A DNA stretch of 64,000 nt, from NCBI GenBank assembly GCA_001593865.1, contig LUCB01000002.1:25277-89276 (forward strand). Reading direction: 5' to 3'. Position numbers and translations under genes: made by a program. The stretch comes from Candidatus Bathyarchaeota archaeon B24. Lineage in GTDB: Archaea; Thermoproteota; CALKCG01; B24. Positions within the stretch are counted from its first letter, which is position 1. Every line of letters starts with the position of its first letter. Below the pieces are notes generated by a model that was not told the DNA's origin, did no database searches, and saw nothing but the letters and a program-made list of their open reading frames with translations. This document shows, one piece after another, positions 1,383 through 62,277 of the stretch.

Positions 1383-2510
1383 ATGTCTATCATAAAGGAA
1401 GTCGAAGCCATACCCCTGAAGATACCCTATGTAAGACCCTTCGTACTCTCCAGGGGGCTCGTGGGGAAGCCTGGTGTGCCGGGAGACCACATATACGTCA
1501 AGATAGAGACTTCCGACGGTGTCGTCGGATGGGGCGAAGCCAGACCCATGCATACCTGGATGTATGAAACCCTCGAAACCGCGTATACTTCCTTAAAACG
1601 GTATATAGCTCCGGCTATCAAAGGTATGGACGCGTTTAGCCTGAACAAGATACTGAAGACGCTAGATAGGGTTTTAACGCCTGTCGTAAGCTCAGGCCAG
1701 CCTTTCATAAAATCGGCCGTCGAGACCGCCTTATATGACATAATAGGTAAGGTAACAGGCCAACCTCTTCATAGGCTTATAGGAGGTAAGACCACCGACC
1801 ACATAGAGCTTTCCGCAATGATGAGCGGAGAGCCTGAGGCCATGGCGGAATACGCGAGAGAAATGGCTTCGAAGGGCTATAGGTGCTTCAAGGTTAAGAT
1901 CATGGGAGACCCGGAGGAGGATGCTAGGAGACTTAGAGCGGTCGGGGATGCTGTACCGGGGGCGGATATATGGGCTGACGCGAACCAAGCGTATACTAGC
2001 TACTCTGTCAGGAGGCTTCTGGAGCTGATAAAAGACATACGAGGTATCATCTGTCTCGAGCAGCCGGTCCCCACGTGGGATTATGATGGGCTTAGACGGA
2101 TAGTTTCGATGAGTCCGATACCTGTAGCGGTCGACGAGTCTGTGTTCAGCCACTACGACCTGCTCAAATTGATATCCATGGATGCGCTCGACCTCGTAGT
2201 GCTTAAACTAGCTAAATCCGGCATCGTCGGGAACCTTAAGATAGCGGCTTTAGCCGAGGCTGCGGGGATAGACCTTTTCGCAAGCGGTATGACGGAGAGC
2301 GGTGTAGGGTTCGCGGCGTCGTTACATCTATACTCGACACTGCCGATAGTAGCGCCCATAGATATAAACGGTCCACAGTTCCTCGAAGACCTCTTGGTAG
2401 ACGGCTTGGAATTCGAAGGAGCTAAAGTCAAGGTTCCAGACAAGCCGGGTTTAGGAGTCGAGGTTAAAGAGGAAAAGCTCGAGGAATACAGGGTTAAGAT
2501 AGAACTCTAG
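1383..2510 (+). CDS. Enolase-superfamily enzyme, mandelate racemase/muconate lactonizing enzyme family (dipeptide epimerase or o-succinylbenzoate-synthase-like)
   Basis: KxK catalytic motif (FKVKI). Metal ligands in expected order (DANQAY, LEQP, VDES). Late lysine (LKLAKSG). Length 375 aa. Confidence 0.8.
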   Translation: MSIIKEVEAIPLKIPYVRPFVLSRGLVGKPGVPGDHIYVKIETSDGVVGWGEARPMHTWMYETLETAYTSLKRYIAPAIKGMDAFSLNKILKTLDRVLTPVVSSGQPFIKSAVETALYDIIGKVTGQPLHRLIGGKTTDHIELSAMMSGEPEAMAEYAREMASKGYRCFKVKIMGDPEEDARRLRAVGDAVPGADIWADANQAYTSYSVRRLLELIKDIRGIICLEQPVPTWDYDGLRRIVSMSPIPVAVDESVFSHYDLLKLISMDALDLVVLKLAKSGIVGNLKIAALAEAAGIDLFASGMTESGVGFAASLHLYSTLPIVAPIDINGPQFLEDLLVDGLEFEGAKVKVPDKPGLGVEVKEEKLEEYRVKIEL

Positions 2511-2540
2511 TATCGTGTTTTCCCCGGTAGGTTAAAACCT

Positions 2541-3350
2541 ATGGTCTTCCTGGGTCGACGGTTTAAGATAGCATGCGTCCAATTCGATTCCGTGGGTAAA
2601 GCTAAAGACCAAATACTCGCAGAAGCTGAGGAGTACGTATCCGAGGCCTCTGCAGAAGGCTGCAGACTCATATGCTTTCCCGAATACTTCCCAGGCTTCG
2701 GGTCGATCGGAGAACTCCGTAGGTTAGCCGAACCGATCCCAGGTCCTTTGACAGATGCTATGTCCAATCTGGCAAAGAAGTATAGGGTCTACCTAGCCTT
2801 CGGTGTGGTCGAAGAATCTGATGGGAAACTCTACGATACCGCGGTCATCCTGGATAACGAGGGGAAGATCGTTCTGAAATACCGTAAAATCCATCTATTC
2901 GACGCCTTAAACGTGAAGGAGTCTCAAGTCTTCGAAGCAGGTGATTCTCCATCCACCATTTTGGAAGTGAACGGTTGGCATATAGCCGTGTCCATATGCT
3001 ACGATATACGGTTTCCCGAACTTCCCAGGCTTCTAGCGGTTAGGGGGATGAACCTCCTACTAGTGCCCACGGCCTGGTTCAGCGGACCGTTTAAAGAGGC
3101 TCACTTGGAAACGATCCTGAAGACTAGAGCCCTAGAGAACGGAATCTACGTAGCCGCGTCTTGCCAAATAGGAGGACCCTTCACGGGTGGAACCTGTATA
3201 GTGGATCCCTTTGGAGTAGTGGTGGCTAGGGGGTTAGAGAAGCCCTGCCTAGTAACGGCCTGGATAAGCTTAGATAGAGTCGACCATGTTAGAGAGGCTC
3301 TTCCCATGCTTAAACATAGAAGACCAGAGGTCTATGAGGGGCTCATATAA
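2541..3350 (+). CDS. Carbon-nitrogen hydrolase (nitrilase superfamily amidase)
   Basis: E-K-C triad context: FPEYF, YRKIHLFD, SICYDIRFPE. 269 aa. Confidence 0.8.
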   Translation: MVFLGRRFKIACVQFDSVGKAKDQILAEAEEYVSEASAEGCRLICFPEYFPGFGSIGELRRLAEPIPGPLTDAMSNLAKKYRVYLAFGVVEESDGKLYDTAVILDNEGKIVLKYRKIHLFDALNVKESQVFEAGDSPSTILEVNGWHIAVSICYDIRFPELPRLLAVRGMNLLLVPTAWFSGPFKEAHLETILKTRALENGIYVAASCQIGGPFTGGTCIVDPFGVVVARGLEKPCLVTAWISLDRVDHVREALPMLKHRRPEVYEGLI

Positions 3351-3356
3351 TGGCTC

Positions 3357-3737
3357 TCACGTTTTAGCCTTTACATATGAATATCCAAAGAGCATGAGGT
3401 AGACCCCTGCGGCTATCATACCCAACCCTACGAACTGGACCGCATACCTTTTAAGCAACTCTGGTGCCGCTATGGCTAACCCCCCTCCAGCTATGAATAG
3501 GGCTCCGATCAACATCGATACCAATCCCCCGGCCTTGATAGGGATCTTCACGGCTATTCTGCGTTTCTCCACGGCTATTAGTGCGTCTAAAAGGAAGCCG
3601 ACGCCCATACCTATGAACATGGAAGCCACAAACCCTAAGCCTCCGAGCTGTTCGATGAGTATGAACCCTATACCCATACCTACGAACATGCAGAAGACTA
3701 GGAAAACTCCCTTCCTACGTCTTTCAGCCTCGCTCAA
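3357..3737 (-). CDS. Small glycine-rich integral membrane protein (about 4 TM)
   Basis: Hydrophobic G-rich helices (GMGIGFILIEQLGGLGF, LIGALFIAGGGLAIAA). Confidence 0.45.
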   Translation of the reverse strand: MSEAERRRKGVFLVFCMFVGMGIGFILIEQLGGLGFVASMFIGMGVGFLLDALIAVEKRRIAVKIPIKAGGLVSMLIGALFIAGGGLAIAAPELLKRYAVQFVGLGMIAAGVYLMLFGYSYVKAKT

Positions 3738-3845
3738 AAGTCGCCACCAACCATGACCCCCATAGGGTCGGTTCGTTATTAAGGATTTCCCTTCTTCAAG
3801 GGTTAACCTTTTAACTTCGAGACCTCAGCTATCTAGCTGGTCTCT

Positions 3846-4844
3846 ATGTCTAGACGTTTAGCCGTCGGGTTTATAGGATGCGGAGGTATAGCCAGAGCCC
3901 ACGTCGATAACCTCGCAAGACTTAATAGGGTGGAGCTTAAGGCGTTCAGCGATATATCCATCGATAGGGCTAAGGCCCTAGCCTCAACCTACGGTGGAGA
4001 GGCCTACGCAGATTGGAGGGAGATGCTTGAAAAATCTAAGCTCGACCTCGTCTTTATATGCCTACCCCCGTTTGCGCATAGGGACGAGGTGATGGTTGCG
4101 GCCGAGAAGGGAATACACATATACATCGAGAAGCCCATAGCCCTAGACATCGAGCTTGCTAGGGAGATGGCTAGGGCCGTCGAGAAGTATGGGGTTAAAA
4201 GCCAAGTAGGCTACCAACTGAGGTTTGCAGCCGGGGTGGAGAGAGCGAAGAGGATCATAGAATCCGGCGAGGCCGGCGCCATAGGGTTGGTTAACGGGGT
4301 CTATTGGTGTAGGTTTATCAGACGAGACTGGTGGATCGACAGGTCTAAGAGCGGGGGTCAGATAGTCGAGCAGTCTACCCACCTATACGACATTTTGAGG
4401 TGGCTATGCGGAGACGTGGAGAGGGTCTATGCGGAAATGGATAGACGATTCTACACCGATGTAGAGGGTATGACCATAGAAGACGTGAGCAGTGTGATGA
4501 TGAGGTTTAAATCCGGAGCCATCGGAGTCGTCTCTTCGACCATAGGAGCCGCCCCGGGATACTGGTGGCTGAGATGGAGCATAGTAGGACGTGACGCTAT
4601 GCTGGAGTCAGAAGACCCCAACCATCTGAGAATCTACTGGAGCGGTAAAACACCATTCACCATTGAGGAGCATAAGGAGCCTTCAAGAGCGCCTATGGCT
4701 CTGGCGGAATTGGACCTCGTGAACGCGATCCTAGAGGATAGAGATACGAGAACGCCGATATCTGAAGGGGTGAAAACCCTAGAGTTAACGCTTGCCGCCG
4801 TAAAATCGGCTGAGACAGGTAAACCGGTTACGCTACCTCTTTGA
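3846..4844 (+). CDS. Gfo/Idh/MocA family NAD(P)-dependent oxidoreductase
   Basis: N-terminal Rossmann motif GFIGCGGIARAHV, EKP motif, 332 aa. Confidence 0.8.
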   Translation: MSRRLAVGFIGCGGIARAHVDNLARLNRVELKAFSDISIDRAKALASTYGGEAYADWREMLEKSKLDLVFICLPPFAHRDEVMVAAEKGIHIYIEKPIALDIELAREMARAVEKYGVKSQVGYQLRFAAGVERAKRIIESGEAGAIGLVNGVYWCRFIRRDWWIDRSKSGGQIVEQSTHLYDILRWLCGDVERVYAEMDRRFYTDVEGMTIEDVSSVMMRFKSGAIGVVSSTIGAAPGYWWLRWSIVGRDAMLESEDPNHLRIYWSGKTPFTIEEHKEPSRAPMALAELDLVNAILEDRDTRTPISEGVKTLELTLAAVKSAETGKPVTLPL

Positions 4845-6384
4845 CCTCATCCTCCGTCGAACGGCCTACCAACCCCATCCTTTCCCAAGCGACTTTAGCT
4901 ACTACGCTTGTTTTAGCCGGGTAATCCCTCACGTCGACTTCGACTGTGACCGGGAACGGGACGGGGGACGCCATACCCCATATCAAAGCTTCATGGTCTG
5001 CTAAACCGGGGAGATAATCAGCCATCCGCTCGCTACCATACTCGGAGTATTTTATTATGGCCTCCTGGTCGTTACCGGCCATAAGCCTGAACGCGGCTAT
5101 CGTGTTACACTGCGAGATCACGGATTTAGAGACATAAGCAGGTCTCTGGGTAACCAGTATGAAGCCTACGTTGTATCCTCCTGCTTGACTTATGGCCTCT
5201 ATTATCTGCTTATCCACACCCGTCTTCTCCGGGCTTCCGACCTCTATCTTAAGACCCCTCTCAGGTATGAAATACTGAGCCTCCTCTATGACGAATATAA
5301 CCGCGAAGTCCCCGGCTCTCCTATGCTCTACAGCATAATGCATTACGTTCCTTATGATATACTTAGCCGCAAGCTGCTGATCCTCTATGTTCGCGTCGAC
5401 GGAGAAGTCCACTATAACCGCAGGATTCCGGTAGACCGTTTCTATTATGTTTAACGGCTTATGCTCTATCCCGAACAATTGACTCCCACGCTTATCGAGA
5501 ACCCACCTGATCTTCGCGAGCACAGAGTCCCTCCCCCTAGAGAGAAGATAAGGCGAGATCTCGACGCATTTCCTAAGGACGTTTTTAACCGTAAGCTCCA
5601 GCCCCTCCGCCCTTATGGAGTTCAAAGCCTCGCATAAAAGCCTACCATCGCTCCTCCGAGGGTCCAAACCCAGCCTGGAAGCGACAAGCTCAGGAGACAC
5701 AAGCTCCGCCCTAGGCACAAACCTGAAATAAGGAAGCATAACCGCACCATACTTAGTCAACAAGCTATACTCACACCGCCTATCGAAAACTATAAACCTA
5801 GGCTTAGGCTCCTGCTCCAACGACCTAGCCATAAGGTTCAACACAAAAGTGCTCTTCCCTGACCTTGTCATTCCTGCGACGAACATATGTCCCTTTGCTA
5901 TCGCGTTTAGGTCTAAGTAGAAGGGCATGTCTAGTCCCCTATGCCGTCCTATCTTCACCGGGAAGTCTGTTCTATCGATCAAACGTCTACCTGAGAGTTT
6001 CAGGAAGAAGCCTTTCAACTCCTCCTGGTTCGGTTCGTATACCGAGTCCCATGTATTCGGGCTGCATTCGAGCCTCCTCCATTTCCCATCCCAGGAGATG
6101 TAGCCTAAGACCTCCGCCCAGGCCACCAGGTATTCGAGCTTCTTCCCATAGTATGCTTTCTCACCCTTCTTACCGGCTATGGGTCCGAAGCTTCCCACGG
6201 TCATCTCAGGATTATAAGGCGTTATCTTGTGAACCCTCAGCAAGACGGGGTTGAATTCTCCTACAGGGCTTAAGGGGTGGTTGATGAAGTAGTAGCCGTT
6301 TACATAGACCTCCGCGTCCTCCATGACGACGAAGGAGACTCTGTTTTGATTGCAGCCAGATAACACATAGCCTATCTGCCTCAA
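4828..6384 (-). CDS. herA: HerA-like FtsK/HerA-superfamily ATPase
   Basis: Walker A GMTRSGKST. Walker B FVIEEAQYF. VTQRP sensor motif. N-terminal beta-rich (HAS-barrel-like) region. 4-nt overlap with the upstream NurA-like gene. Confidence 0.75.
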   Translation of the reverse strand: MRQIGYVLSGCNQNRVSFVVMEDAEVYVNGYYFINHPLSPVGEFNPVLLRVHKITPYNPEMTVGSFGPIAGKKGEKAYYGKKLEYLVAWAEVLGYISWDGKWRRLECSPNTWDSVYEPNQEELKGFFLKLSGRRLIDRTDFPVKIGRHRGLDMPFYLDLNAIAKGHMFVAGMTRSGKSTFVLNLMARSLEQEPKPRFIVFDRRCEYSLLTKYGAVMLPYFRFVPRAELVSPELVASRLGLDPRRSDGRLLCEALNSIRAEGLELTVKNVLRKCVEISPYLLSRGRDSVLAKIRWVLDKRGSQLFGIEHKPLNIIETVYRNPAVIVDFSVDANIEDQQLAAKYIIRNVMHYAVEHRRAGDFAVIFVIEEAQYFIPERGLKIEVGSPEKTGVDKQIIEAISQAGGYNVGFILVTQRPAYVSKSVISQCNTIAAFRLMAGNDQEAIIKYSEYGSERMADYLPGLADHEALIWGMASPVPFPVTVEVDVRDYPAKTSVVAKVAWERMGLVGRSTEDEVKEVA

Positions 6385-7529
6385 ACGCCCTCACCCTCAA
6401 GACCGTCGAGCCCGCTGTTCAAAACCCAGCTCTCCCCGTACTCTAAGAGAAGCAGGTCTAGGTCCTTGAGCTCCATCTCCCCTCTTTTGACGAGCTCTAA
6501 GGCTTTAGAATAGAGTACGAGTGAATGTACGTTAGACGTCGGACGCGTTATCCTCGAAAGCCTATCTGCTTCATGAATCGGATACGGTATACCGTTTAGA
6601 CCAGCCATGGTCCATACGATCGACATCAGCTCCTCAATCTTGTCCAAGCAGAACAGTGGAATTTCGACCCTAAACGGCATAGACCCTGTCTTGACGTAGC
6701 TGGAGTATATCACCGGTAGAGTGGAGCTGTAGCCTAGGTCCTCGGCGACCGCTTTGTAGGACTGTGTGATCTCGTTCTCGACCCTAAACGGCTCCGAGTA
6801 CTCTCCCTCTCGGAGTATAAAGTTCATCAATATAGAGTCTCTTATCTGAGGGTTCTTGGTATACGACGTGTAGAAGCTCATATGCGTGCGTTTCACAAAC
6901 CCTAGGACCGGCACCTTGAACTTTCTACAGTTCTCTAGAAGCTCAAGCACCGTTATGACCGTGAAGTAGAAGTCCCCTTCATACTGAGGTGAGGTTTTAA
7001 ACCCGGGGTATAACCTCGGGTTGAGGACTATCCCCCCGTCCAGCAGCAGGTAGTCCGGCTTCCACCTTTCGACGGCTTTAGACGCCACGTGGTATTCCAA
7101 GGCCATGTGAAGCAGGCTTTCACGCTTATCAGGGTCGACTTCAGACGTCCATAGATCAGGTGGACCGGTTACGCATAGAGGCTCCTCTACTATGCTCCAG
7201 TTTTCAACCAGAACCGCTACCGCACCGTATAGAGGGATGTATGCGAACTTATACTCTGTCCCGTTTCTACCAGCGTCTACACCCACTATCCTAGACGATG
7301 CCGGTCCATCCTCGTCATACATGGCTTTGTAAACCTTAACCCTGCCTCTGAGGTCGTCTATAAGTCTATGTATCTCCTTCCTATACCTCCTCAGCCTGTC
7401 TAGGAGAAGTTCCGTTCCCTTGTCGATAAGCTCTTGGTACAGCTTGATGTAGGGCATCTCCTTGAGCCATAAGGCTGCCCTCAAATTATCTTGGTCATTG
7501 CTTGTTGAGGGGGAAACGCTTATATCCAT
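6381..7529 (-). CDS. nurA: NurA-like nuclease
   Basis: Acidic motifs spaced as NurA D/E/D catalytic residues (GVDAGR ... HMALEYH ... LLLDGG). Gene order nurA-herA with overlapping stop/start. Confidence 0.6.
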   Translation of the reverse strand: MDISVSPSTSNDQDNLRAALWLKEMPYIKLYQELIDKGTELLLDRLRRYRKEIHRLIDDLRGRVKVYKAMYDEDGPASSRIVGVDAGRNGTEYKFAYIPLYGAVAVLVENWSIVEEPLCVTGPPDLWTSEVDPDKRESLLHMALEYHVASKAVERWKPDYLLLDGGIVLNPRLYPGFKTSPQYEGDFYFTVITVLELLENCRKFKVPVLGFVKRTHMSFYTSYTKNPQIRDSILMNFILREGEYSEPFRVENEITQSYKAVAEDLGYSSTLPVIYSSYVKTGSMPFRVEIPLFCLDKIEELMSIVWTMAGLNGIPYPIHEADRLSRITRPTSNVHSLVLYSKALELVKRGEMELKDLDLLLLEYGESWVLNSGLDGLEGEGV

Positions 7530-10766: not shown

Positions 10767-11684
10767 ATGGTCTTCAAGACTTTCGGATGGAACGGCTTCG
10801 AGCTTAAAGTACCTAAAGACTGGGACATGAGCATAGATAGAGGGGGCTTCGATAAGGGATACATTAGGCTAGACGGGTTGAAATTTCCAAGGTTGGAGGT
10901 TTCATGGGAGCAGTATAAGGAAGATAAGGTTAAACCTTTGAACGATATCGTGGAGGCAGCGAAGAAACATCTGAGGAAGAAGGATAAAAACGTGCGGTTT
11001 ATAGGTAAAGATAGGTCTATTAGAATTTATAGGCACCCAGCGAAGCGAATCCGTTGGAGAATCGACGGCGACGAGGGTTACTTGATAATTTGGTATTGTG
11101 ATAAAAGTCAGAGACTCTATAGACTGCAGATTTTCTTCAAACAAGACGAATACTGGAGTTTTAAGAACGTTATCACGGAGATTTTGAAGTCTTTCAAATG
11201 CCACGTCGGAGGAAACTTGTATACATGGACGGCTTTGGACTTCACCCTGAAACTTCCTAAGATATTCAGGTTAGAACATAGGATCTATAAAGTCGGTAAA
11301 ATCGCCCTCTTGTTTGAATCTAAGGATTCGGCTATCTTTATAAACAGGATAGGTATGGCTAATGTGGTGCTTTCAGAGAAGTATGACGACGACCTCAGAA
11401 AGTTGTTGGAAGAGGAGCATCTGCCCGATATCCGGAAGAGGTTTAAAATACCCAAGTTTAAACGCGTTAGAAGGTTTAGCGATGAACGTCATGAGGGCTT
11501 TATCATGACTACATCCTATAAATCAGGGATTTTTATGCCTAAAGAGTTTTTCGTTAAAACCAGGGTTTGGACTTGTGAGCCGTCTAATAAAATCTACGCA
11601 GTTACCATGGTTATCCGTAAGGGTTCCGAAGCCGAGAAGATGAGGAGTAGGTTGGAAAGATTATTATTCTCGATATGCCCATAA
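10767..11684 (+). CDS. Hypothetical protein
   Basis: 305-aa ORF with a TATA-like TTTAATTAAA about 20 bp upstream. No family recognised. Confidence 0.4.
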   Translation: MVFKTFGWNGFELKVPKDWDMSIDRGGFDKGYIRLDGLKFPRLEVSWEQYKEDKVKPLNDIVEAAKKHLRKKDKNVRFIGKDRSIRIYRHPAKRIRWRIDGDEGYLIIWYCDKSQRLYRLQIFFKQDEYWSFKNVITEILKSFKCHVGGNLYTWTALDFTLKLPKIFRLEHRIYKVGKIALLFESKDSAIFINRIGMANVVLSEKYDDDLRKLLEEEHLPDIRKRFKIPKFKRVRRFSDERHEGFIMTTSYKSGIFMPKEFFVKTRVWTCEPSNKIYAVTMVIRKGSEAEKMRSRLERLLFSICP

Positions 11685-11706: not shown

Positions 11707-12156
11707 TTGAAAATACCTGAGGCATTATCTAAGCTATTCGGTAGGAAGAAGGCTAGGGCTCCCCCGTCGATCGATAGAGATGTCGTATTAGGGCTGGTTC
11801 CCATTAGAAACCCGGCTATAGAGTGGCGTAGGTATAAAAGCGGCGAGGTGGCTATCATAGTAACCGTTAAACGAAGGGGTCTGATGGCGCGTATAGATAA
11901 AGGTGAGAAAAAGAAGAAGATAATACTCGATAAGATGGGTTCTCATGTGTGGAACCTATGCGACGGCGAGCACACGTTCGGAGACATAGTCGAAGACCTC
12001 GTGAAGACCTATAAAATGCATAGGAGAGAGGCGGAGCTTTCCCTCGCAAGCTATTTCGACACTCTGATGAAGAAAGGTCTCATAAGCTTTATCCCAGGAA
12101 AGCTTTCGACGCTAAGGGAGCGTGGAGAAGTTAAGCAGGAAACCCCGCAGACGTAA
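11707..12156 (+). CDS. PqqD-like (RiPP-recognition-element-like) small protein
   Basis: PqqD signature LDKMGSHVWNLCDGEHTFGDIVEDLVKTY...YFDTLMKKGLI. Paralogue of the 18760 gene. Confidence 0.55.
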   Translation: MKIPEALSKLFGRKKARAPPSIDRDVVLGLVPIRNPAIEWRRYKSGEVAIIVTVKRRGLMARIDKGEKKKKIILDKMGSHVWNLCDGEHTFGDIVEDLVKTYKMHRREAELSLASYFDTLMKKGLISFIPGKLSTLRERGEVKQETPQT

Positions 12157-12955
12157 GCGGCCGTCTAGGGGTAGGAGCTTCTTCATACTTCAGGCGATCG
12201 GGATTTGGTTTAAAGAGGTATCTAGGAGAATCGGGCTAGTCATAGTGCATCCCTTCCGGGCGTTCAGCGAGATAGCGGAAAACCCCGACCTAGGGGGCCC
12301 TATACTCGTATTGTCCCTCGTAACGGCCCTCGACCTAGTAAACAGGTATATTCTCTATACCTACAAGACAAAGCTTTACATCGTGAAGAACCCAGGGTGG
12401 TATCAGCCTCAGCCAGGTCTTCCCCCGATGAACGTTTACACCCTATACACGCTTGCGATGACTTTCCTAATCTACATGGCTTATATGGTGTTGAAGAGCG
12501 TGTTAATCTACTATCTATCCGCATGGCTCTTAAGGGGGGAGAGAAGCTTCACAAGCCTACTGATAGCCACTATCTACTCCTTCAGCGTCTACATCCTCCG
12601 AAAAACCGTGGAGATCGTGTTCGCACTGTATATTCTTCCCCCCGTCGACATATATACGACCGTTAGAGACGACCTTCTCGCGTTAAGCTCCTCTACAACG
12701 CTTCTATTGCTTAATGAGGATTATAAGCGTATAGCCTTAGCCCTCAGTGAAGCTAGCAGAAAGGCATGGGAAAACCTACCGGTCTCTAAGGTCATGACGT
12801 ATGTTGTCTATGGATTCGACCTGTGGGTATACCTAATCGGAATACTGATAGTGTACTATATAACGGAGTTACCTAAGGATAAAGCGGTTATAGTGGGAGT
12901 GCTTCCCCTAGTTTTAGACGTGTTTTTAAGAATGGTCTTCACGAGACCTTCCTAA
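12122..12955 (+). CDS. Yip1-like multi-pass membrane protein
   Basis: NPDLGGPIL motif preceding the first TM. At least 5 hydrophobic helices. The first 35 nt overlap the PqqD-like gene, so the true start may be downstream. Confidence 0.45.
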   Translation: MEKLSRKPRRRKRPSRGRSFFILQAIGIWFKEVSRRIGLVIVHPFRAFSEIAENPDLGGPILVLSLVTALDLVNRYILYTYKTKLYIVKNPGWYQPQPGLPPMNVYTLYTLAMTFLIYMAYMVLKSVLIYYLSAWLLRGERSFTSLLIATIYSFSVYILRKTVEIVFALYILPPVDIYTTVRDDLLALSSSTTLLLLNEDYKRIALALSEASRKAWENLPVSKVMTYVVYGFDLWVYLIGILIVYYITELPKDKAVIVGVLPLVLDVFLRMVFTRPS

Positions 12956-13688
12956 AGAGGATGTAAACCATCAGCATAAGCAACGTGAGCAAGCTCAGCG
13001 TTTTAGCAAGCCTCTCCGGCAGACCATCGCTGCGTTGGAATCTCGGGATGTTCGACTCTTCAAGGACTATGTCGGCGTGGCATTCGTGGTCGACCTCGCC
13101 GTTTACACTTAGATATCGGATATGCGATTCGGCGTAGATTAAGATCCCTGTGTCTGCGTCGTAGGCTCTCTCTATGTAACCCGTTACGTTCGCCGTTTCG
13201 AAAGTCACATTCATGACATAGCATTCTACTTCGACCCCCATCAAATCTCGCCTATCGACGTTCACGGCCTTAGCCGTCAGGTTTTCCAGCTGGTAAACCT
13301 GCCCTATCGATGGCTTAAAGTTTATCCATAGATAGTTGGTGACGTTGAACACTTTTCTACCGTCTACTTCAACTATCATGTTTCTCTCGAGGTCTATTTT
13401 GATAGTGGTTAACGACTCGGCTTCATCTTTGAGAACCTTTAAAGTCACGTTTACCATCGCGTAGTTATCAGCCGTCACCTGGGTTATCTCCCACCTCATG
13501 TAGCCCTCTGAGGTTAAAACCCCCTGCTGAGTCGCGTAGGTCACGTTTCCAACATATTCAGCGTATACTCCTTCCTTTATCCAACCATCGTAAACGTCGT
13601 CTCCGACGGTCGATACGGTAAACGCTTGAAACACCAACGCCATTATGAGCAGGGCTAAGGCTTTACCGCTAGGTCGCATAAGTTCCAA
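12939..13688 (-). CDS. Secreted/surface glycoprotein with N-terminal signal peptide and C-terminal membrane anchor
   Basis: Signal-like N-terminus KALALLIMALVFQAFTVSTVG. C-terminal TM LSLLTLLMLMVYILF. At least six N-x-T sequons (NVTYA, NVTLK, NVTNY, NLTAK, NVTFE, NVTGY). Confidence 0.55.
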   Translation of the reverse strand: MELMRPSGKALALLIMALVFQAFTVSTVGDDVYDGWIKEGVYAEYVGNVTYATQQGVLTSEGYMRWEITQVTADNYAMVNVTLKVLKDEAESLTTIKIDLERNMIVEVDGRKVFNVTNYLWINFKPSIGQVYQLENLTAKAVNVDRRDLMGVEVECYVMNVTFETANVTGYIERAYDADTGILIYAESHIRYLSVNGEVDHECHADIVLEESNIPRFQRSDGLPERLAKTLSLLTLLMLMVYILFRKVS

Positions 13689-13692
13689 AGGA

Positions 13693-14589
13693 TTAGACGA
13701 GAGTACAGCTATAAAGCGTTTTCCTTATGAGCCCTGTACCATCGCATATGTCCGTGTTCAGACAGGCTAGGTTCTCCCTACACGATGCAAAGCTCATCCC
13801 ATATCCTAAAACCAGGGACCTCAGCGTCTTAACTATTCTATGACGGTAGTCCTCTGGGAGATACTTGTATCCGTGTATCCATCTCCCTCTTGAGTAGATG
13901 TTTCTAAGCCTATAGTATAGGTCTAGGTTAATCCTCTTAAGAGTCTTGAAGAAGCCTCTTACAGGTTTAAGCGTCGAAACAGTCACATGTCTGACACCTG
14001 AAGAAGCTAGGGTCTCGACTAATTCTTTAAGCCCCTCGGGGTCGTCGTTTAAACCCGGTATTATCGGGTCTATCCTAGCCCCGACCGGTATGCCTGCTTT
14101 CGACAGCCTCCTCAAAGCCTCGATCCTCTTCGAGGGGTTGGGTGCCCCGGGTTCCATGAACGACGTGAACTCCTCATCTAGGGAGGTGACCGTGAGCGTA
14201 ACCACAGCGGATGTCTTAGCCAACAAGTCCAGATCCCTAACCACTAGGTCGGACTTCGACACTATCAGGATGGGGAAACCGCCGTCGACCAAGACCTCTA
14301 GTATCTTCCTTGTCAACATGGTCCTTCTTTCGATAGGCTGGTATGGGTCTGTACAGTCGCTGAGCATGACCGGTAGCTTAACCGCAGCTAGACGCCTCTT
14401 ACGTTTAAGCTTCTCCAAAAGCTCAAACCTAGGTTTAACCTCCCCCCTGAAGGCTGGGAATTTAACCGAGTAGCAGTATAGACAGCCATGCCCACATCTG
14501 CCGAGATACGGGTTTATGTTAAACTTAGGGGGACATGTACAGTAAGCCTCGGGTGGAGACCTGAATCTGGGAAGGGCCACGAGCATCAC
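13693..14589 (-). CDS. Radical SAM protein, spore-photoproduct-lyase/DNA-photolyase-like subfamily
   Basis: CGHGCLYC (CxxxCxxC) near the N-terminus. About 300 aa with no SPASM tail. Start overlaps the mtrH stop by 4 nt. Confidence 0.6.
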   Translation of the reverse strand: MMLVALPRFRSPPEAYCTCPPKFNINPYLGRCGHGCLYCYSVKFPAFRGEVKPRFELLEKLKRKRRLAAVKLPVMLSDCTDPYQPIERRTMLTRKILEVLVDGGFPILIVSKSDLVVRDLDLLAKTSAVVTLTVTSLDEEFTSFMEPGAPNPSKRIEALRRLSKAGIPVGARIDPIIPGLNDDPEGLKELVETLASSGVRHVTVSTLKPVRGFFKTLKRINLDLYYRLRNIYSRGRWIHGYKYLPEDYRHRIVKTLRSLVLGYGMSFASCRENLACLNTDICDGTGLIRKTLYSCTLV

Positions 14590-15506
14590 CTGAACATCCT
14601 AAACAGCGGATGCCCCCTATCGACCTTAACACCTTTGAAACGCATATTATATGCCACATAGCTTGCGGCTAATGCGCAGGCCGGGTAGATGTATCTCGCA
14701 TGTGAGATGGGGCCATAAAGTATGAAGTTCGCCCCCAACATTATCGGTAGGGCCTGCGATACGGAGTTACAGCATCTGAAAACATACGGTTCTAGCGTCT
14801 TACGCCGCTTCCACATCGATATGGCGTTGGCCGGCCCGCAGCCGGCTGGGAGACCGGTCTCAGCCTTGACCTCGTAGACCGTTTGAGACGCAAGCCCTAT
14901 GTCAGGCATATCTAAGACGCACACATCTACCAGAGGCTTCTCGACTCCGGCGGCTTTAGCCGCCTCCAGTAGACCAGGCTTACCGTCCAACTCTTTCAGC
15001 ACTTTTAAACGGCCTTTAGGTGTCGGGTTTCTGGGGTTGTAAAGCTGGAGAACCGCTGCTTTCAGACCGGCTTCCCTTATGGTCTCTATCTCCTCCCGCC
15101 GGTAGTTTATGTCTATCGAGTTGTAGATAGCTCTGTCGGACAGCCCCGCCTCGGCTATATGCCTGACGACGGGTATTCTAACGTCTGCAGTAACCCCGTC
15201 TACCAGGAAGGGGCTATCGGTCTTATCGGCTACGAAGTCTACGAACTTTATCAGCGCTTCGGCTGTGTGCCCTACGACATCTATTATCCTCGGTAGACCC
15301 GTCTCCTCTGATATCTCCTCCTCTTTGTTGAGGAGCCTTTCAGCCTTAGCCTTGTCGAAAACTCCACGGGACTCATCCAGAACGATCTTATGCCCCTTAT
15401 AGAATATGCTACCTATCATGACGGGTGGTAGTTGACCGGGTTGACCTCCGACTTTGACGCCTGCTATCTCGAATATAGCTTGGTCTTTATCGAACTTAAA
15501 CATCAT
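14586..15506 (-). CDS. mtrH: Tetrahydromethanopterin S-methyltransferase subunit H (MtrH) family methyltransferase, stand-alone
   Basis: N-terminus MMFKFDKDQAIFEIAGVKVGGQPGQLPPVMIGSIFYKGHKIV plus DRAIYNSI match the canonical MtrH N-terminus almost residue for residue. Confidence 0.85.
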   Translation of the reverse strand: MMFKFDKDQAIFEIAGVKVGGQPGQLPPVMIGSIFYKGHKIVLDESRGVFDKAKAERLLNKEEEISEETGLPRIIDVVGHTAEALIKFVDFVADKTDSPFLVDGVTADVRIPVVRHIAEAGLSDRAIYNSIDINYRREEIETIREAGLKAAVLQLYNPRNPTPKGRLKVLKELDGKPGLLEAAKAAGVEKPLVDVCVLDMPDIGLASQTVYEVKAETGLPAGCGPANAISMWKRRKTLEPYVFRCCNSVSQALPIMLGANFILYGPISHARYIYPACALAASYVAYNMRFKGVKVDRGHPLFRMFR

Positions 15507-15588
15507 GATACCTCCCTGTGGCTTGAACCGCTAGGGTAAAACACTTTAAGGTGTATAAATGTTTTAAACGTAAGTTGGTCTACATCGG

Positions 15589-15912
15589 TTGGGGTTGGTA
15601 GAGATGTCGGACATGCGTGCAAAGGTTAGGAAGCTTCAGGGTATAGTGGAGTCGGTCGAGAGAACAGGGGAGAAGATGGTCGATGAAAACGGTATCGAAT
15701 GGGAGAAGTGTATATACACCGTTAGGCTCGTAGGTTTTTCTAAGAGAACTCCTGAGGAGAGGTTGCCTAAGGAGCTTGAGGGTAAGCGGGTTAAGCTTGT
15801 TAGGTGGGCTGCCTTCGACTGGCACTTTAAGCTGGGTGTCAGGAAGACCCTTGAACCCGACGAGACCGAGGCTGTCTTAAGGGGGGAGAAGACCGAGACG
15901 GTGTTCTGGTAG
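15589..15912 (+). CDS. Hypothetical protein
   Basis: 107-aa ORF with a TATA-like box upstream. Confidence 0.35.
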   Translation: MGLVEMSDMRAKVRKLQGIVESVERTGEKMVDENGIEWEKCIYTVRLVGFSKRTPEERLPKELEGKRVKLVRWAAFDWHFKLGVRKTLEPDETEAVLRGEKTETVFW

Positions 15913-16013: not shown

Positions 16014-16481
16014 ATGTCGGTCTCCGCCTTTGAGAAGGTGTTTTTAAACGCGCTGAGGAGGACGCTTAGGGAACTCATGGAGTATGATGAGGGGTTCAAG
16101 AACGTTAGGGATGAGCTTAGGAGTCTCATGAGGAGGAGAGGCATAGGGGAGGATGAGGTGAGAAGGCTTATGGATCAGATACCACCCTACGTCTTCGGGT
16201 CTCTAGTAGCCGACATAGCCATAGGCGCGATATTAGAGGGGGCTTCTAGGGAGCTTATGATCCAGAAGATGATCGCGGATGTGGTCGTCAAAGCCTTCAG
16301 CGAGAAGGGAATCCAAACTCTGCTGGAACGCTGCAACATAGAGGCGGCTAAGAACATGCTGGGTGAGGAGAAGGTGGAGGAGGTAGCCGAGAGGATAACG
16401 ACCGAGGACATATTCCAGACAGACGAATACGAGGAGTTCTGCAAAACCATAGCCAAGCTTCTAGAGGAAACCCTAAAATAA
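16014..16481 (+). CDS. Hypothetical acidic helical protein
   Basis: 155-aa ORF ending 32 nt before the tRNA. Confidence 0.4.
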   Translation: MSVSAFEKVFLNALRRTLRELMEYDEGFKNVRDELRSLMRRRGIGEDEVRRLMDQIPPYVFGSLVADIAIGAILEGASRELMIQKMIADVVVKAFSEKGIQTLLERCNIEAAKNMLGEEKVEEVAERITTEDIFQTDEYEEFCKTIAKLLEETLK

Positions 16482-16512: not shown

Positions 16513-16599
16513 GCCGGGGTTGCGGAGCGGACAAACGCGCAGGCCTTGAGAGCCTGTGGGCCCTCCGGGCCCTCGTGGGTTCGAATCCCACCCCCGGCG
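16513..16599 (+). tRNA. tRNA-Ser (anticodon TGA), class II with long variable arm
   Basis: Acceptor stem GCCGGGG/CCCCGGC. Anticodon stem CAGGC/GCCTG with loop CTTGAGA (anticodon TGA). Long variable hairpin GGGCCCTCCGGGCCC. T-loop GTGGGTTCGAATCCCAC. Discriminator G. CCA not encoded. Confidence 0.85.
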
Positions 16600-16720
16600 C
16601 ATCTCTGTGAACCCGCGGTCTCTTTTAAAAACTTAGAGCCTTAGAAGCCTTGTGGGACGGCGTTCATGACTATTTAATGCTTGGGTAGGCTTATATCTAT
16701 CCCGTCGAATACTTTACGTT

Positions 16721-17032
16721 GTGGTTCCCATGGAGGCTATAGAGGAGCTCCTGTCCGAGAACCCTGTCCTAGCCAAAGCCGTAGCCTTAGAGGTCGTCGC
16801 GAGACGTAGGAGACAGCTTCTCGGCGAGCTTAGGAGGATCGAGGAGAGGATAAGGGAGTTCGAGTCCAAGCATGGTGCGTCTATCGAGGAGTACGAGCGG
16901 ACGATGGGGGACTCCTTCGAGGCGCATGAGGTATGGTTCGAGTGGAAGGCGCTGGTAGAGGTGAGGAAGTCTGTCGAGGAGGAGCTCAAGGGGCTTGAGA
17001 GAACGCTTAGAAAGCTTACTGGAAAGGTATAG
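16721..17032 (+). CDS. Small coiled-coil protein, first gene of a two-gene cassette (antitoxin-like?)
   Basis: Helical, charged repeats (RRRRQLLGELRRIEERIREFE). 38-nt overlap with the downstream gene. Confidence 0.4.
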   Translation: MVPMEAIEELLSENPVLAKAVALEVVARRRRQLLGELRRIEERIREFESKHGASIEEYERTMGDSFEAHEVWFEWKALVEVRKSVEEELKGLERTLRKLTGKV

Positions 17033-17372
17033 CGATATAATCGCTTCTGTCGAGGAGTTCAGCCTCGTCGAGAGGCCCGGAGTCGCCGTACTCAGGCTTA
17101 AGCTGAACCTCAGGGATGCGAGCACACTCTACATCCGCGAGATCTGGGTTCGCGGGAGGCTCGAAGCCTACAGCTACTACCGCATCGTGGAGGGAGAGGT
17201 ATCGGAAGGATGGAACAACGCTCGACATCATCCAGACATCCGAACCTTCCCCCACCACAAACACGTAGGTGGAAGAGTCGAACCCCTGGAAACTCCTTCG
17301 CTAGAAGCCTTCCTAGAGGCTGTGAGAAGAGCCTTAGAAGATCAGGCTGGAGAAGTAAGGGATCGAAGTTAG
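16995..17372 (+). CDS. Small protein with conserved His cluster (toxin-like?), second gene of the cassette
   Basis: WNNARHHPDIRTFPHHKHVGGRVEP histidine-rich motif (HEPN-like Rx4-6H possible). Confidence 0.4.
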   Translation: MRERLESLLERYSDIIASVEEFSLVERPGVAVLRLKLNLRDASTLYIREIWVRGRLEAYSYYRIVEGEVSEGWNNARHHPDIRTFPHHKHVGGRVEPLETPSLEAFLEAVRRALEDQAGEVRDRS

Positions 17373-17676
17373 AGACTGCACATATATATCCTTATCCAAC
17401 TTGCGGAGACTCGCAGAACCGAAGCATAGATGATGGAATTGTATGGGTCAGGCATCGTCGAGGTCTATGAGGAGTCGCTCGGTCTACACGGTGCTGCCTA
17501 TCACTTCATTAAGGAAGGAAAAGGGTAGCTACTTAATAGCTGGACGTAGAGTCGTTCAACTCGTTGAGCATCGAATACTGATGAACCAGAGGTTATGTTG
17601 GTTCTATGGTCGGAATGGCTGTTGAGATTGTTCTCTGCCGGGGATTTTTTGTTTATAAATGGATGAATAAAATTGT

Positions 17677-17686
17677 ACGTTAACGT
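17677..17686. promoter_or_regulatory. Perfect 10-bp palindrome ACGTTAACGT in a 420-bp non-coding region
   Basis: Read directly. Lies just downstream of a T-tract (GGGGATTTTTTGTTTAT, archaeal terminator-like). Confidence 0.5.
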
Positions 17687-17755
17687 TCCCGATGTCGGTA
17701 GATTGGATTACATGGGGGGTGATTTTTGTGTGTTTCGATCGAAGAGTGTAGAGGT

Positions 17756-18759: not shown

Positions 18760-19164
18760 TTGGTGAACCTGTTGAGTAGGGATGTCCTCGACTACGTGGC
18801 TGTGAGGAACCCCGAGTTGGAGTGGGGGTATGAGCCTACAGGAGAGATGAGTGTCGTCATTAGGAAAAGGGGGCTTCTGGGCTCTAGGGCTAAAAAATAT
18901 ATTTTCGACGAGATAGGCTCTTACGTCTTGAGGCTTCTCGACGGTAAGAGAACCCTCAGAGAGGTCGCACATATGCTGGCTTCCACAAGGGGTATGAATA
19001 TCGAGGAGGCTGAACGTGCGCTAGTTAAATACGTCGAGAAGCTTAAAGAACGAGGGTTGATCTCTCTTCTACCGCATAAAGCGGTTAAAACCTGTGTGAG
19101 CTGTGGGGCTGAGATACCTTCCAACGCGTTCTACTGCCCCTACTGCGGTGCAAAACAGCCTTAG
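18760..19164 (+). CDS. PqqD-like small protein fused to a C-terminal zinc ribbon
   Basis: FDEIGSYVLRLLDGKRTLREVAHML...YVEKLKERGLISL (PqqD-like). C-terminal CVSCG...CPYCG. Paralogue of the 11707 gene. Confidence 0.55.
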   Translation: MVNLLSRDVLDYVAVRNPELEWGYEPTGEMSVVIRKRGLLGSRAKKYIFDEIGSYVLRLLDGKRTLREVAHMLASTRGMNIEEAERALVKYVEKLKERGLISLLPHKAVKTCVSCGAEIPSNAFYCPYCGAKQP

Positions 19165-35347: not shown

Positions 35348-35890
35348 TTAATGGGTTATCCCTATACGCGTATAAATCTCCCTAGGGGCCTTAACCTCGA
35401 CTATCATATTGACCACGTCAGCCCTATCGACGAGTTCAGGTGGACAGTATCTTCCGGTCAACACGACATCCGTCTCTTCAGGAACCTCGTCTAGAAGGTT
35501 TAAGACCTCTTGAACATCGACCAGGCCTATGTACGCGGCTAGGCATATCTCATCCAGTACAAGTAGATGCGGTTTACTCTTCAGAACCTCCCTGGCCTTT
35601 TCAAGAGCCTTCTTCGCCAGAGCCTTATCGGTCTCGGATGGGTTTCTTAGGTCCACCCACCCCCTCCTACCGAACTGGTATATCTCGTAGTACGGTTTAA
35701 GCTTCTCCATGACCTTATACTCCCCTATGTCCTTACGGCCCTTCATGAACTGGATGATCACAGCCTTCAAGCCATGGCCTACACACCTTAAAGCCAACCC
35801 GAGCGCGTTCGTAGTTTTACCGGCTCCGGTCCCGTAGTATAGGAATATCTTACCCAAGGCTACTCCACCTCGCAGCTTTCCCTCGGGCAT
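35348..35890 (-). CDS. cobO: Cob(I)yrinic acid a,c-diamide adenosyltransferase (CobO/BtuR/CobA type)
   Basis: P-loop YGTGAGKTTNALGLALR. 180 aa. Confidence 0.8.
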   Translation of the reverse strand: MPEGKLRGGVALGKIFLYYGTGAGKTTNALGLALRCVGHGLKAVIIQFMKGRKDIGEYKVMEKLKPYYEIYQFGRRGWVDLRNPSETDKALAKKALEKAREVLKSKPHLLVLDEICLAAYIGLVDVQEVLNLLDEVPEETDVVLTGRYCPPELVDRADVVNMIVEVKAPREIYTRIGITH

Positions 35891-38247
35891 CCCTCCGGCG
35901 GCTTAACACCGACGGGAAGAACCCTCTCGGTGGTTCTTCTACGGGGTTTAACCCCTAGCTCCAAGACCTGCTCACCCTTACTACCATACCGGTAGACCGT
36001 TATACCCTTACAACCGAGCCGATAAGCCAATAAGAACGCCTTCTTAACGTCTTCAGGTGAAGCGTCGGGTCTCAGGTTTATCGTCTTCGACACTGCGTTG
36101 TCGGTGAATTCTTGGAACGCAGCCTGCATCTTAACATGCCAATCCACGTCTACTTCCAAAGCCGTTACGAAAACTCTTCGAATATCCTCCGGAAGCCCCT
36201 CTATGTGGGAGAGCATACCCGTCTTAGATATCTCAGCCATAACCTCGTCGCTGTAAACGCCCCTCTCCTTAAGAACCTCCTCGAGAACCGTGTTTACTTC
36301 GAACAACCTCACGCCCCCGAGAACCGTCCTAGAGTATACGAGGGCGAAGACCGGCTCTATACCGCTCGAGGTGCCGGCTATTATGCTTATGGTTCCGGTC
36401 GGAGCCACGGTGGTCGTGGTAGCGTTCCGTATACCATGCTTCTTAACGGCTTCCCTCACCCTACTCCAGTCTAGCGTGTAATGTTTCACCTCACCCTCGG
36501 CTTCGAAGGGCATACGGGGATTCTCGGAGTCATATATAGAGCCCTTGAAGGCAGGAAAGCTACCTCTCGCCTCAGCAAGCTCGGCCGACATGAGCTTGCT
36601 ATGGTAGTTGATATACTCCATAATCCTCCTGGCGAGCTCGATAGCCTCCTCGGAGTCGTAGGGGATTCCAAGTCTGAAGAGCATGTTGGCCCATCCCATG
36701 ACCCCTAAACCTATCTTACGCGTTCTAAGGGTTGTTTCCTCGATCTCAGGTATCGGGAAGTGGTTAGCGTCTATGACGTTGTCCAAGAAGTGGGTAGCAA
36801 CTCTGACAACTTCTCTGAGCTTCTTCCAGTCGACAACCCATCTACCCCTTTCAAACTTGACCATACGCTCCAGGTTTATAGAGCCCAAGTTACATGACTC
36901 GTAAGGAAGAAGCGGCTGTTCGCCGCAGGGGTTGGTGGCTTCGATCGTTCCTAAGCGGGGGGTTGGATTGTGTCTGTTAACCGTGTCTAGGAATATTATA
37001 CCTGGGTCTCCCGACCTCCACGCGTTGTAGACGATCATGTCGAAGAGGTATCTTGCGTTAACCTCTTGAACAGGTTTACCGGTTCTCGGGTTTACGAGCT
37101 TAAACTCAGCACCCTTCTCCACGGCCTCCATGAACTCATCGGTCACGGCGACGGATATGTTGAAGTTCCTCAGAGCCCCCTCCTCGCTTTTAGCGTAGAC
37201 GAAGTCTATTATATCGGGGTGGTCGACCCTGAGGATCCCCATGTTAGCGCCTCGACGTTTCCCACCCTGCTTGATGACATCGGTAGCTACGTCGTAGATG
37301 CGCATAAAACTGACAGGGCCGGAGGCCACGCCGCTCGTAGACCTTACTACATCGCCTTTAGGCCTGAGCTTCGAGAAGTTGAAGCCTGTGCCTCCACCGC
37401 TCTTATGGATCAGAGCCGTGTTTTTCAGAGATTCGAATATGCTCTCTATCGAGTCGTGAACCGGTAATACGAAGCACGCGGAGAGCTGGCCCAGAGGGGC
37501 GTTAGCGTTCATGAGGGTCGGTGAGTTAGGTAGAAAGTATCTGTTCGCCATTACTTGGAAGAAGACGTCGATCACGTTCTCGTAAAGCGTATCCCACCGC
37601 TCCTCTACAAGCGATAAAAGCTCTTCGAAGCTCACCCTCATCTTACCCTCTTTACCGAGCCTGTTGTAGAGCCTCTTCATCATCTCAAGCTCGTAGCTCG
37701 TCAAACCTGCTTTACCGGGTTTGTACTCAAACTTCTCGACCTGCCTTACGGGTTGCCGTCCATCCTTATCGTATACGTCGCTCCAGTAGAAGGCGTCTAC
37801 GAGACCTATATACCTCGATACCCTCATCAGCATCTGCTTAGGCGTCTCGACTATGTTTCCACGCTCATCCTTCAGAAGGTATCGGCTCTTCAACACGGTG
37901 ACTGCGTTTAAGGTGAGCTTCATATCGTCTACAACGCCTAGCATACGTTTGATCTCCCTGATCTCAGACCGTCTACGCCTGTAGAGGATGTAGGCCTTAG
38001 CAGCCTCGTAAAGCCCGTTTCTAACCAGAACCTTCTCGACTATATCCTGAATCTGCTCGACATGAGGAGTCGAACCCACACCGAATGTGTCGTCGAGGAT
38101 CTTAACTACCTCGTCTCCGAGCCTCTCGGCTAGAGACCTATCCTTCAAGCCTGTGGCTTGGAAAGCCTTCCAGATAGCCTCGACTATCCGGTTTTTATCA
38201 AAATCTACTATACGACCGTCACGTTTAATCACTTTAGACGGAGGCAA
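35860..38247 (-). CDS. nrdJ: Class II (adenosylcobalamin-dependent) ribonucleoside reductase with N-terminal ATP-cone
   Basis: ATP-cone VIKRDGRIVDFDKNRIVEAI. Active-site region NPCGEQPL. C-terminal Cys pair. 795 aa. Confidence 0.85.
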   Translation of the reverse strand: MPPSKVIKRDGRIVDFDKNRIVEAIWKAFQATGLKDRSLAERLGDEVVKILDDTFGVGSTPHVEQIQDIVEKVLVRNGLYEAAKAYILYRRRRSEIREIKRMLGVVDDMKLTLNAVTVLKSRYLLKDERGNIVETPKQMLMRVSRYIGLVDAFYWSDVYDKDGRQPVRQVEKFEYKPGKAGLTSYELEMMKRLYNRLGKEGKMRVSFEELLSLVEERWDTLYENVIDVFFQVMANRYFLPNSPTLMNANAPLGQLSACFVLPVHDSIESIFESLKNTALIHKSGGGTGFNFSKLRPKGDVVRSTSGVASGPVSFMRIYDVATDVIKQGGKRRGANMGILRVDHPDIIDFVYAKSEEGALRNFNISVAVTDEFMEAVEKGAEFKLVNPRTGKPVQEVNARYLFDMIVYNAWRSGDPGIIFLDTVNRHNPTPRLGTIEATNPCGEQPLLPYESCNLGSINLERMVKFERGRWVVDWKKLREVVRVATHFLDNVIDANHFPIPEIEETTLRTRKIGLGVMGWANMLFRLGIPYDSEEAIELARRIMEYINYHSKLMSAELAEARGSFPAFKGSIYDSENPRMPFEAEGEVKHYTLDWSRVREAVKKHGIRNATTTTVAPTGTISIIAGTSSGIEPVFALVYSRTVLGGVRLFEVNTVLEEVLKERGVYSDEVMAEISKTGMLSHIEGLPEDIRRVFVTALEVDVDWHVKMQAAFQEFTDNAVSKTINLRPDASPEDVKKAFLLAYRLGCKGITVYRYGSKGEQVLELGVKPRRRTTERVLPVGVKPPEGCPRESCEVE

Positions 38248-39410: not shown

Positions 39411-39438
39411 GTTCACACTGGTCCGGGGTGTAGCATAG

Positions 39439-62116: not shown

Positions 62117-62277
62117 AATATATAGAATTGTTTAGCGACGCCAGCGAAATCTAGTCTAACATCTGCCATGTTATTTAAAGAGTATTGAGCTTGAACACCC
62201 GTAGGGTAATATCGACAAAACATCTGGGATATACGCTGAACTCTAGAAAAGTTGAACACGTTTATAAGTAAACTCTT

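Follow-up and report, generated by a model that had tools for sequence, protein, structure and literature searches.

A spore photoproduct lyase-like radical SAM gene adjoins a stand-alone mtrH gene in one shallow clade around Bathyarchaeota archaeon B24

Introduction

Isolated MtrH proteins of Bathyarchaeia (BA1/BA2 and Bathy-6) and Methanomethylicia have been read as methyltransferases acting between corrinoid and tetrahydromethanopterin (H4MPT) (PMC7886697), and bacterial splB-like genes of COG1533 are reportedly LexA-regulated in several phyla (PMC4951493). Here we describe a 64-kb stretch of the chromosome of Candidatus Bathyarchaeota archaeon B24 (the window, hereafter) in which relatives of both stand side by side. 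A stand-alone MtrH-family gene (14586–15506, minus strand, 306 aa) is followed head to tail by a gene for a radical S-adenosylmethionine (SAM) protein resembling spore photoproduct lyase (SPL; COG1533/DUF1848-type; 13693–14589, minus strand, 298 aa), and then by an open reading frame (ORF) of 249 aa, p249. Stand-alone MtrH of Bathyarchaeia is already in the literature and both B24 genes are already annotated in GenBank, their products being exact matches to KYH37965.1 (MtrH) and KYH37964.1 (radical SAM) from a 105,689-bp B24 contig. The original prediction, made from the window's letters, held that the radical SAM protein could be a functional partner of MtrH in a different methyl-transfer or repair chemistry. 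Our comparison with relatives points, with a probability of roughly 0.85, to two functionally unrelated genes that became neighbours by a rearrangement specific to the B24 lineage.

Results

The gene pair is confined to one shallow clade

The mtrH–radical SAM pair was present in locus L008, where MtrH is 99% and the radical SAM protein 98% identical to the B24 proteins, in L013/L014 (GCA_021161255.1; 91% and 89%) and in L012 (84% and 80%). Nine contigs were apparently common to the clusters that the two proteins form at 90% identity. As the adjacency recurs across clade members and clusters, it is no assembly artefact. It is confined to one shallow clade, in which MtrH is at least 84% identical.

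The sister clade comprises ten contigs (L001–L007 and L009–L011) with MtrH proteins 73.5–74.8% identical. There, p155, p107, mtrH, a gene for a PqqD-like protein, p305 and a DUF2116 gene stood in the same order and orientation as at the B24 flanks, and none of the ten loci held the radical SAM gene, p249 or the Yip1-domain gene that lies beside them in B24. From the stop codon of mtrH to the convergent PqqD-like gene, the sister-clade loci have ~65–90 nt.

Reciprocal profile scans returned the same picture at larger distances. Scanning GTDB species representatives with a profile built on the radical SAM subfamily gave 80 loci (47–63% identity, nearly all in Bathyarchaeia or Hecatellales), and none had, within 6 kb, anything matching MtrH at E ≤ 1e-5. 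An MtrH profile scan of metagenomes also gave 80 loci (40–75% identity), 59 of them with at least 1 kb of downstream sequence; a B24-type radical SAM match was found at none of the 80. The original prediction had named a lack of co-conservation in relatives as the mark of a fortuitous adjacency, and co-occurrence was indeed restricted to the clade with MtrH of at least 84% identity.

The two genes have different neighbours elsewhere

At each of the nine loci with the nearest radical SAM orthologues (L015–L023, 56–63% identical), a gene for an XPF/Hef-type nuclease with ERCC4 and HHH_5 domains lay directly 5′ on the same strand. In L015 (7312–8894) the end of the nuclease gene coincides with the start of the radical SAM gene, a gene for an AlkA-like glycosylase precedes the nuclease gene and Ogg is encoded close by. 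About 20 further loci carried EndoIII and, after it, RadB, CarS and the radical SAM gene, followed by a convergent aEF-2 gene downstream. Over 81 radical SAM loci, XPF was counted at 22, RadB/Rad51 at 22 and an HhH-GPD EndoIII at 16, with at least one of these at 41; the identities of repair-gene neighbours were confirmed by Pfam. A DNA-repair neighbourhood was also seen at L024, L026, L034, L048, L053, L054, L061–L065, L072, L075, L084, L094 and L095. A homologue search of the window found no second radical SAM copy and no XPF, RadB, EndoIII, CarS or EF-2 gene.

Stand-alone mtrH genes keep other company: over 80 loci, the neighbours included a B12-binding corrinoid protein (CoP) at 25, RACo at 23, MTTB at 9 and a URO-D/MtaA-like protein at 8. 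This agrees with the published CoP–MtrH model for Bathyarchaeia (PMC7886697).

A different radical SAM gene, encoding 319 aa with the motif CSYSCVYC and matching only the generic PF04055, occurred 0.1–5 kb from mtrH at five of the 80 metagenome loci (L113, L134, L148, L149 and L170), and in L170 it lay directly downstream of mtrH on the same strand. We considered it as support for an mtrH–radical SAM module and rejected it: it is not of the SPL-like family, is too rare and is variably placed. The ORF p107, which is divergent from mtrH in B24, was found ~2 kb from mtrH in the distant loci L155 (3631–3918) and L172 (3651–3938), where MtrH is 44–46% identical; p107 has no Pfam family, and its position suggests that it may be linked to stand-alone mtrH.

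These neighbourhoods bear on the idea that the block of three clade-specific genes (radical SAM, p249 and Yip1) was already in place in the common ancestor and that the sister clade later lost it by deletion, which would make the pairing older and possibly once functional. The polarity of the change has no syntenic outgroup to fix it, as L098, a relative with 59% identical MtrH, has none of the B24 flanking genes and does not polarise the rearrangement. Yet all nine nearest radical SAM orthologues lie behind XPF and not behind mtrH, and p249 and the Yip1 gene were unlinked to the radical SAM gene at the 80 orthologue loci outside the pair-bearing clade. Even a block that was ancestral here would leave the adjacency limited to one small lineage, and we consider this history improbable.

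The radical SAM protein is nearest to SPL in fold

The radical SAM protein matched Pfam Radical_SAM (PF04055) at 1.9e-15 (57.9 bits, cut-off 29.5) and, over residues 116–283, DUF1848 (PF08902; 37.1 bits, cut-off 30.5). Its match to Pfam SPL (PF20903) was partial, covering residues 77–197, and sub-threshold at 18.1 against 27 bits. It also scored under the cut-offs of NCBIfam PA0069 (143.2 bits, cut-off 360) and Rv2578c (114.6 bits, cut-off 430), and by these scores it is related to both families and a member of neither. A Pfam scan of the protein found neither a B12-binding domain (PF02310, PF02607) nor a SPASM domain. We rejected a class B cobalamin-dependent radical SAM methyltransferase, as the protein is without a B12 domain and has only 31 residues before its cluster motif.

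That motif, C32xxxC36xxC39, was invariant across 71 homologues and places the protein in the radical SAM superfamily. It reads C-L-Y-C-Y at its end, with invariant tyrosines on either side of the third cysteine, an arrangement that is presumably the same in SPL. Four further cysteines (C17, C19, C270 and C282) were also invariant in the 71-homologue alignment, which suggests an additional metal site or a second Fe–S cluster, neither of which SPL is known to have. All 50 family-invariant residues of this alignment are kept in the B24 protein.

An AlphaFold model built on 71 sequences reached a predicted local distance difference test score (pLDDT) of 88.9. When the model was compared with the PDB by Foldseek, ranks 1–6 were all SPL entries, headed by 4fhc and 4fhg, with E values of 5e-10 to 1e-9, 16–17% identity and template modelling (TM) scores of 0.63–0.65 normalised to the query (best match 0.64) and 0.57 normalised to the target. 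The next match was the lipoyl synthase LipA (7.6e-8). PDB sequence searches with the protein and with an 18-sequence profile returned nothing meaningful and no SPL, so that the SPL link comes from the structure search and not from sequence searching. NCBI and JGI annotate homologues under the names ‘SPL family radical SAM protein’ or ‘DNA repair photolyase’. The description of the gene as an SPL-type CxxxCxxC radical SAM gene therefore holds for motif, naming and modelled fold; by its Pfam score the protein falls outside the SPL family proper.

Because of this fold and of the conserved neighbours elsewhere, the radical SAM protein is most likely a DNA-lesion lyase, in which a 5′-deoxyadenosyl radical would reverse or process a lesion.

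Radical SAM enzymes that mature peptides commonly work with PqqD-like domains, and a gene for a PqqD-like protein (11707–12156) lies 1.5 kb from the radical SAM gene, with a second at 18760–19164. The enzyme could accordingly be imagined as a maturase of ribosomally synthesised and post-translationally modified peptides (RiPPs) working with the nearer PqqD-like protein, with MtrH a bystander; the maturases SuiB and SkfB are among the weaker Foldseek matches of the model. The SPL matches are, however, ~100-fold better in E value than these, and Pfam detected neither a SPASM nor a twitch domain. The PqqD-like gene is on the opposite strand, two genes stand between it and the radical SAM gene, and in the sister clade the PqqD–p305 pair is kept without any radical SAM gene. 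Nor did a tblastn search with the window’s PqqD-like protein (E ≤ 1e-5) find a homologue at any of the 80 loci with orthologues of the radical SAM gene. We find this role scarcely credible.

The MtrH protein is encoded without Mtr partners

MtrH of B24 matched Pfam MtrH (PF02007) at E 2.1e-88 (296.8 bits, cut-off 22.8) over residues 7–293, essentially its full length. It scored 311 bits on the NCBIfam MtrH family PRK00979 (cut-off 287) and barely cleared TIGR01114 (275.7 against 271.4). An orthologue of MtgA was considered and rejected, as the score on the MtgA equivalog NF047990 was 315.1 bits against a cut-off of 550. The closest PDB sequence match was 6sj8, the MtgA of Desulfitobacterium hafniense (1.5e-81, full length), with MtrH chains of the Mtr complex ranking behind it (8z9u, 2.5e-67; 9qtp, 9e-60).

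By Pfam, we scanned 53 ORFs of the window, of which 50 are at least 150 aa long; the other long ORFs were named by synteny from a relative’s annotation or are antisense to a scanned gene. The scans found no other Mtr subunit and no corrinoid protein, in line with the stand-alone MtrH homologue that the original prediction had described. mtrA–G are not just upstream either: 5′ of mtrH there is an intergenic region of 82 nt (15507–15588), as read from the sequence, and then the divergent 107-aa ORF p107 (15589–15912, plus strand). With this 5′ neighbour and no Mtr subunit in the window, a subunit of an mtrEDCBAFGH operon was rejected. The spacer is A/T-rich, with a TTTATA box ~45 nt and a GGGAGG 5 nt before the ATG of mtrH, and the region of the box would be the mtrH promoter.

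A tblastn search of the window with representatives of corrinoid protein, RACo, MttB and MtaA gave nothing below E 0.5, and the adjoining gene for a corrinoid protein, RACo or a substrate methyltransferase that characterises CoP–MtrH loci is absent at B24. By analogy with its described relatives, B24 MtrH is predicted to be a methyl-corrinoid:pterin methyltransferase. Its pterin is probably H4MPT rather than tetrahydrofolate (THF), because the host is an archaeon and the methanofuran gene mfnB is in the window.

Two other stretches of the window touch on C1 and corrinoid metabolism. At 60847–63986, the gene for MfnB, the 4-(hydroxymethyl)-2-furancarboxaldehyde phosphate (4-HFC-P) synthase, has as neighbours one gene of the amino-acid-kinase family and one resembling hydantoinase_A; the group may serve cofactor biosynthesis, as would suit a C1 pathway based on methanofuran and H4MPT. 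At 35348–38247, a gene for an ATP:corrinoid adenosyltransferase (CobA/BtuR) overlaps the end of a gene for a class II-type ribonucleotide reductase with an ATP-cone. From these two genes it follows that the organism handles corrinoids, despite the lack of a corrinoid methyltransferase protein in the window.

The junction is tight under either start codon

The junction of mtrH and the radical SAM gene (14578–14592, minus strand) was read from the sequence and from an alignment of four clade members, and runs TTC AGG TGA TGC TCG TGG. A conserved GTG at 14589 overlaps the TGA stop codon of mtrH as GTGA and opens the 298-aa radical SAM frame, so that the overlap in the original prediction holds for this start. 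Relatives have ACG or ACA in place of the ATG that follows one codon later, at 14586, which is thus not conserved. A further GTG in the same frame, at 14580, does not vary, stands 5 nt after the mtrH stop, is preceded by the Shine–Dalgarno-like AGGTGA and would give the N-terminus M-A-L-P-R-F, which fits the MxLPxF consensus of homologues. Translation more probably starts at GTG 14580 (295 aa) than at GTG 14589, which would replace the overlap by a gap. Whether the spacing is an overlap of 4 nt or a gap of 5 nt, it is tight enough to make co-transcription of the two genes very likely.

Several observations weigh against a reading of the two genes as unrelated neighbours. AGGTGA recurs at the junction in every one of the four clade members, and the pair was kept together while its proteins diverged to 80–84% identity; some selection for co-expression inside the pair-bearing clade is conceivable. 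No gene for a corrinoid protein, RACo or a substrate methyltransferase lies within 64 kb of B24 mtrH. We infer the direction of the event, insertion in the B24 clade rather than deletion in the sister clade, from the XPF-linked position of the gene in outgroups. The repair role predicted for the uncharacterised radical SAM subfamily rests on a fold likeness at 17% identity and on neighbourhood.

The tight spacing, the conserved junction, the persistence of the pair in at least four assemblies and the lack of an adjoining corrinoid protein gene would all suit a functional two-enzyme module in the B24 clade, for example one in which the radical SAM enzyme acts on a methylated substrate or on DNA and MtrH supplies or removes the methyl group through H4MPT. 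Against such a module stands a sister clade with identical flanks, whose MtrH exists without the radical SAM gene, and so do the reciprocal scans, with 0/80 on both sides. The radical SAM protein lacks a cobalamin-binding domain and keeps all the invariants of a family found beside XPF, RadB and EndoIII elsewhere, and the third gene of the operon encodes an unrelated membrane protein. A module, and with it the new methyl-transfer chemistry that had been proposed, is thus very unlikely, being largely refuted by the missing co-conservation. We give equally little credence to an adaptive capture of the radical SAM gene by the mtrH unit with a real functional link in the B24 lineage. Were it true, DNA or cofactor repair might be co-regulated with methyl-H4MPT turnover, or the radical SAM reaction might act on a methylated substrate with the methyl group passing via MtrH to H4MPT.

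Other features of the locus

The third gene of the unit, p249 (12939–13688, minus strand), starts 4 nt past the radical SAM stop codon and, among the relatives’ loci, was found only in L008, L013 and L014. Its translation begins with a hydrophobic, signal-like segment, is rich in N-x-T sequons and ends in a hydrophobic anchor, as in a membrane or secreted protein, without a link to either chemistry; Pfam and NCBIfam scans gave no match. The gene for the Yip1-domain membrane protein (12122–12955, plus strand, 277 aa; Pfam Yip1 7.7e-11) is convergent with the mtrH–radical SAM–p249 unit and is present in the same three relatives’ loci only. We considered a foreign origin of the three-gene block and rejected it on composition: its GC content of 0.48–0.50 is no anomaly against 0.50 for the window.

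Beyond the block lie the flank markers common with the sister clade. The nearer PqqD-like gene is on the plus strand (Pfam PqqD 1.3e-09) and is syntenic in L001–L007 and L009–L011. The conserved 305-aa ORF p305 (10767–11684, plus strand), placed by synteny, has copies of 57.7–59% identity at the same relative position in those ten loci and no match in a Pfam scan. This PqqD-like gene was always paired with p305 and the DUF2116 gene and had no SPASM radical SAM partner; the second PqqD-like gene of the window encodes a C-terminal zinc ribbon. On the other side, p107 is 74–80% identical in the sister-clade loci and is followed by the 155-aa ORF p155 (16014–16481, plus strand), conserved in synteny, and by a tRNA-Ser gene (16513–16600).

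The stretch by the tRNA-Ser gene (16513–17700) differs from that of the 99% relative, L008, which has seven small helix-turn-helix (HTH)-type genes there (2400–6200). The window and L013 have two small genes in its place, one with a TumE-family match in L013, and integrase fragments lie near the stretch in L002 of the sister clade. It is probably an integration hot spot.

The remaining window is ordinary chromosome, with ilv and leu genes, SufBD, ribosomal proteins, FtsY and AlaRS. Genes for Pta (5.8e-117) and Ack (7.5e-154) are adjacent at 38403–40650; a pta/ack pair has been highlighted as an indicator of acetogenic capacity for the bathyarchaeial groups B24 and B26-1 (PMC11631310). At 4828–7529, on the minus strand, there is a pair of genes for a NurA nuclease and a HerA/FtsK-type ATPase, named by synteny with the Pfam annotation of L013.

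Discussion

The mtrH and radical SAM genes of B24 adjoin each other in one small clade and have unlike neighbours everywhere else, and the adjacency itself gives no evidence of a shared function. The history that fits best begins in the clade ancestor, where the radical SAM gene would have left a site directly downstream of an XPF/ERCC4 nuclease gene; we infer this relocation because the XPF-linked site is that of all nearest outgroups. The gene would then have been inserted between mtrH and the convergent PqqD-like gene, along with the genes for the membrane glycoprotein-like p249 and the Yip1-domain protein, and would now be transcribed from the mtrH promoter as mtrH–radical SAM–p249. As the B24 protein keeps its 50 invariant residues, has gained no B12-binding or SPASM domain and is encoded at the GC content of the window (0.50), it appears to be the same enzyme at a new site, and nothing hints that it has changed its function or come from a foreign source. 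MtrH would meanwhile pass methyl groups to or from a pterin, likely H4MPT, with a methyl-Co(III) corrinoid protein from another part of the genome as its partner, and would so feed or drain the methyl branch of the archaeal Wood–Ljungdahl pathway.

Two lessons follow. One is negative: a tight or overlapping gene pair in one genome should not be taken for a functional module before its conservation has been checked. The other is the strongest lead from this work, namely that SPL-like radical SAM genes of Bathyarchaeia are consistently linked to XPF, RadB and EndoIII. The linkage suggests that these strictly anaerobic archaea, which form no spores, have a radical-based DNA-repair activity as yet uncharacterised. 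Literature searches on COG1533 with radical SAM found only papers on bacterial SOS regulons, and those on spore photoproduct lyase with archaea and XPF found only general DNA-repair reviews.

Set against described systems, the radical SAM protein shares the CxxxCxxC radical SAM core with SPL (SplB, 4fhc), the nearest solved fold to its model. It differs from SPL in being 17% identical and ~40 residues shorter, in its four extra invariant cysteines and in its host, a non-sporulating anaerobic archaeon, which makes the spore photoproduct itself an unlikely substrate.

MtrH, too, can be compared with described systems. With the MtrH of the methanogen MtrA–H complex (8z9u, 9qtp) it shares the Pfam family and a bare pass of TIGR01114, whereas the B24 gene has no mtrA–G and an unrelated, divergent 5′ gene, and its product is closer in sequence to MtgA. 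The published isolated MtrH of Bathy-6, like 25 of the 80 other loci, has an adjoining corrinoid protein gene, unlike the B24 locus. MtgA of D. hafniense (6sj8) is, like B24 MtrH, a soluble MtrH-family protein of ~306 aa encoded without mtrA–G; the B24 protein scores below the equivalog cut-off and belongs to an archaeal host, in which the pterin is more likely to be H4MPT than THF.

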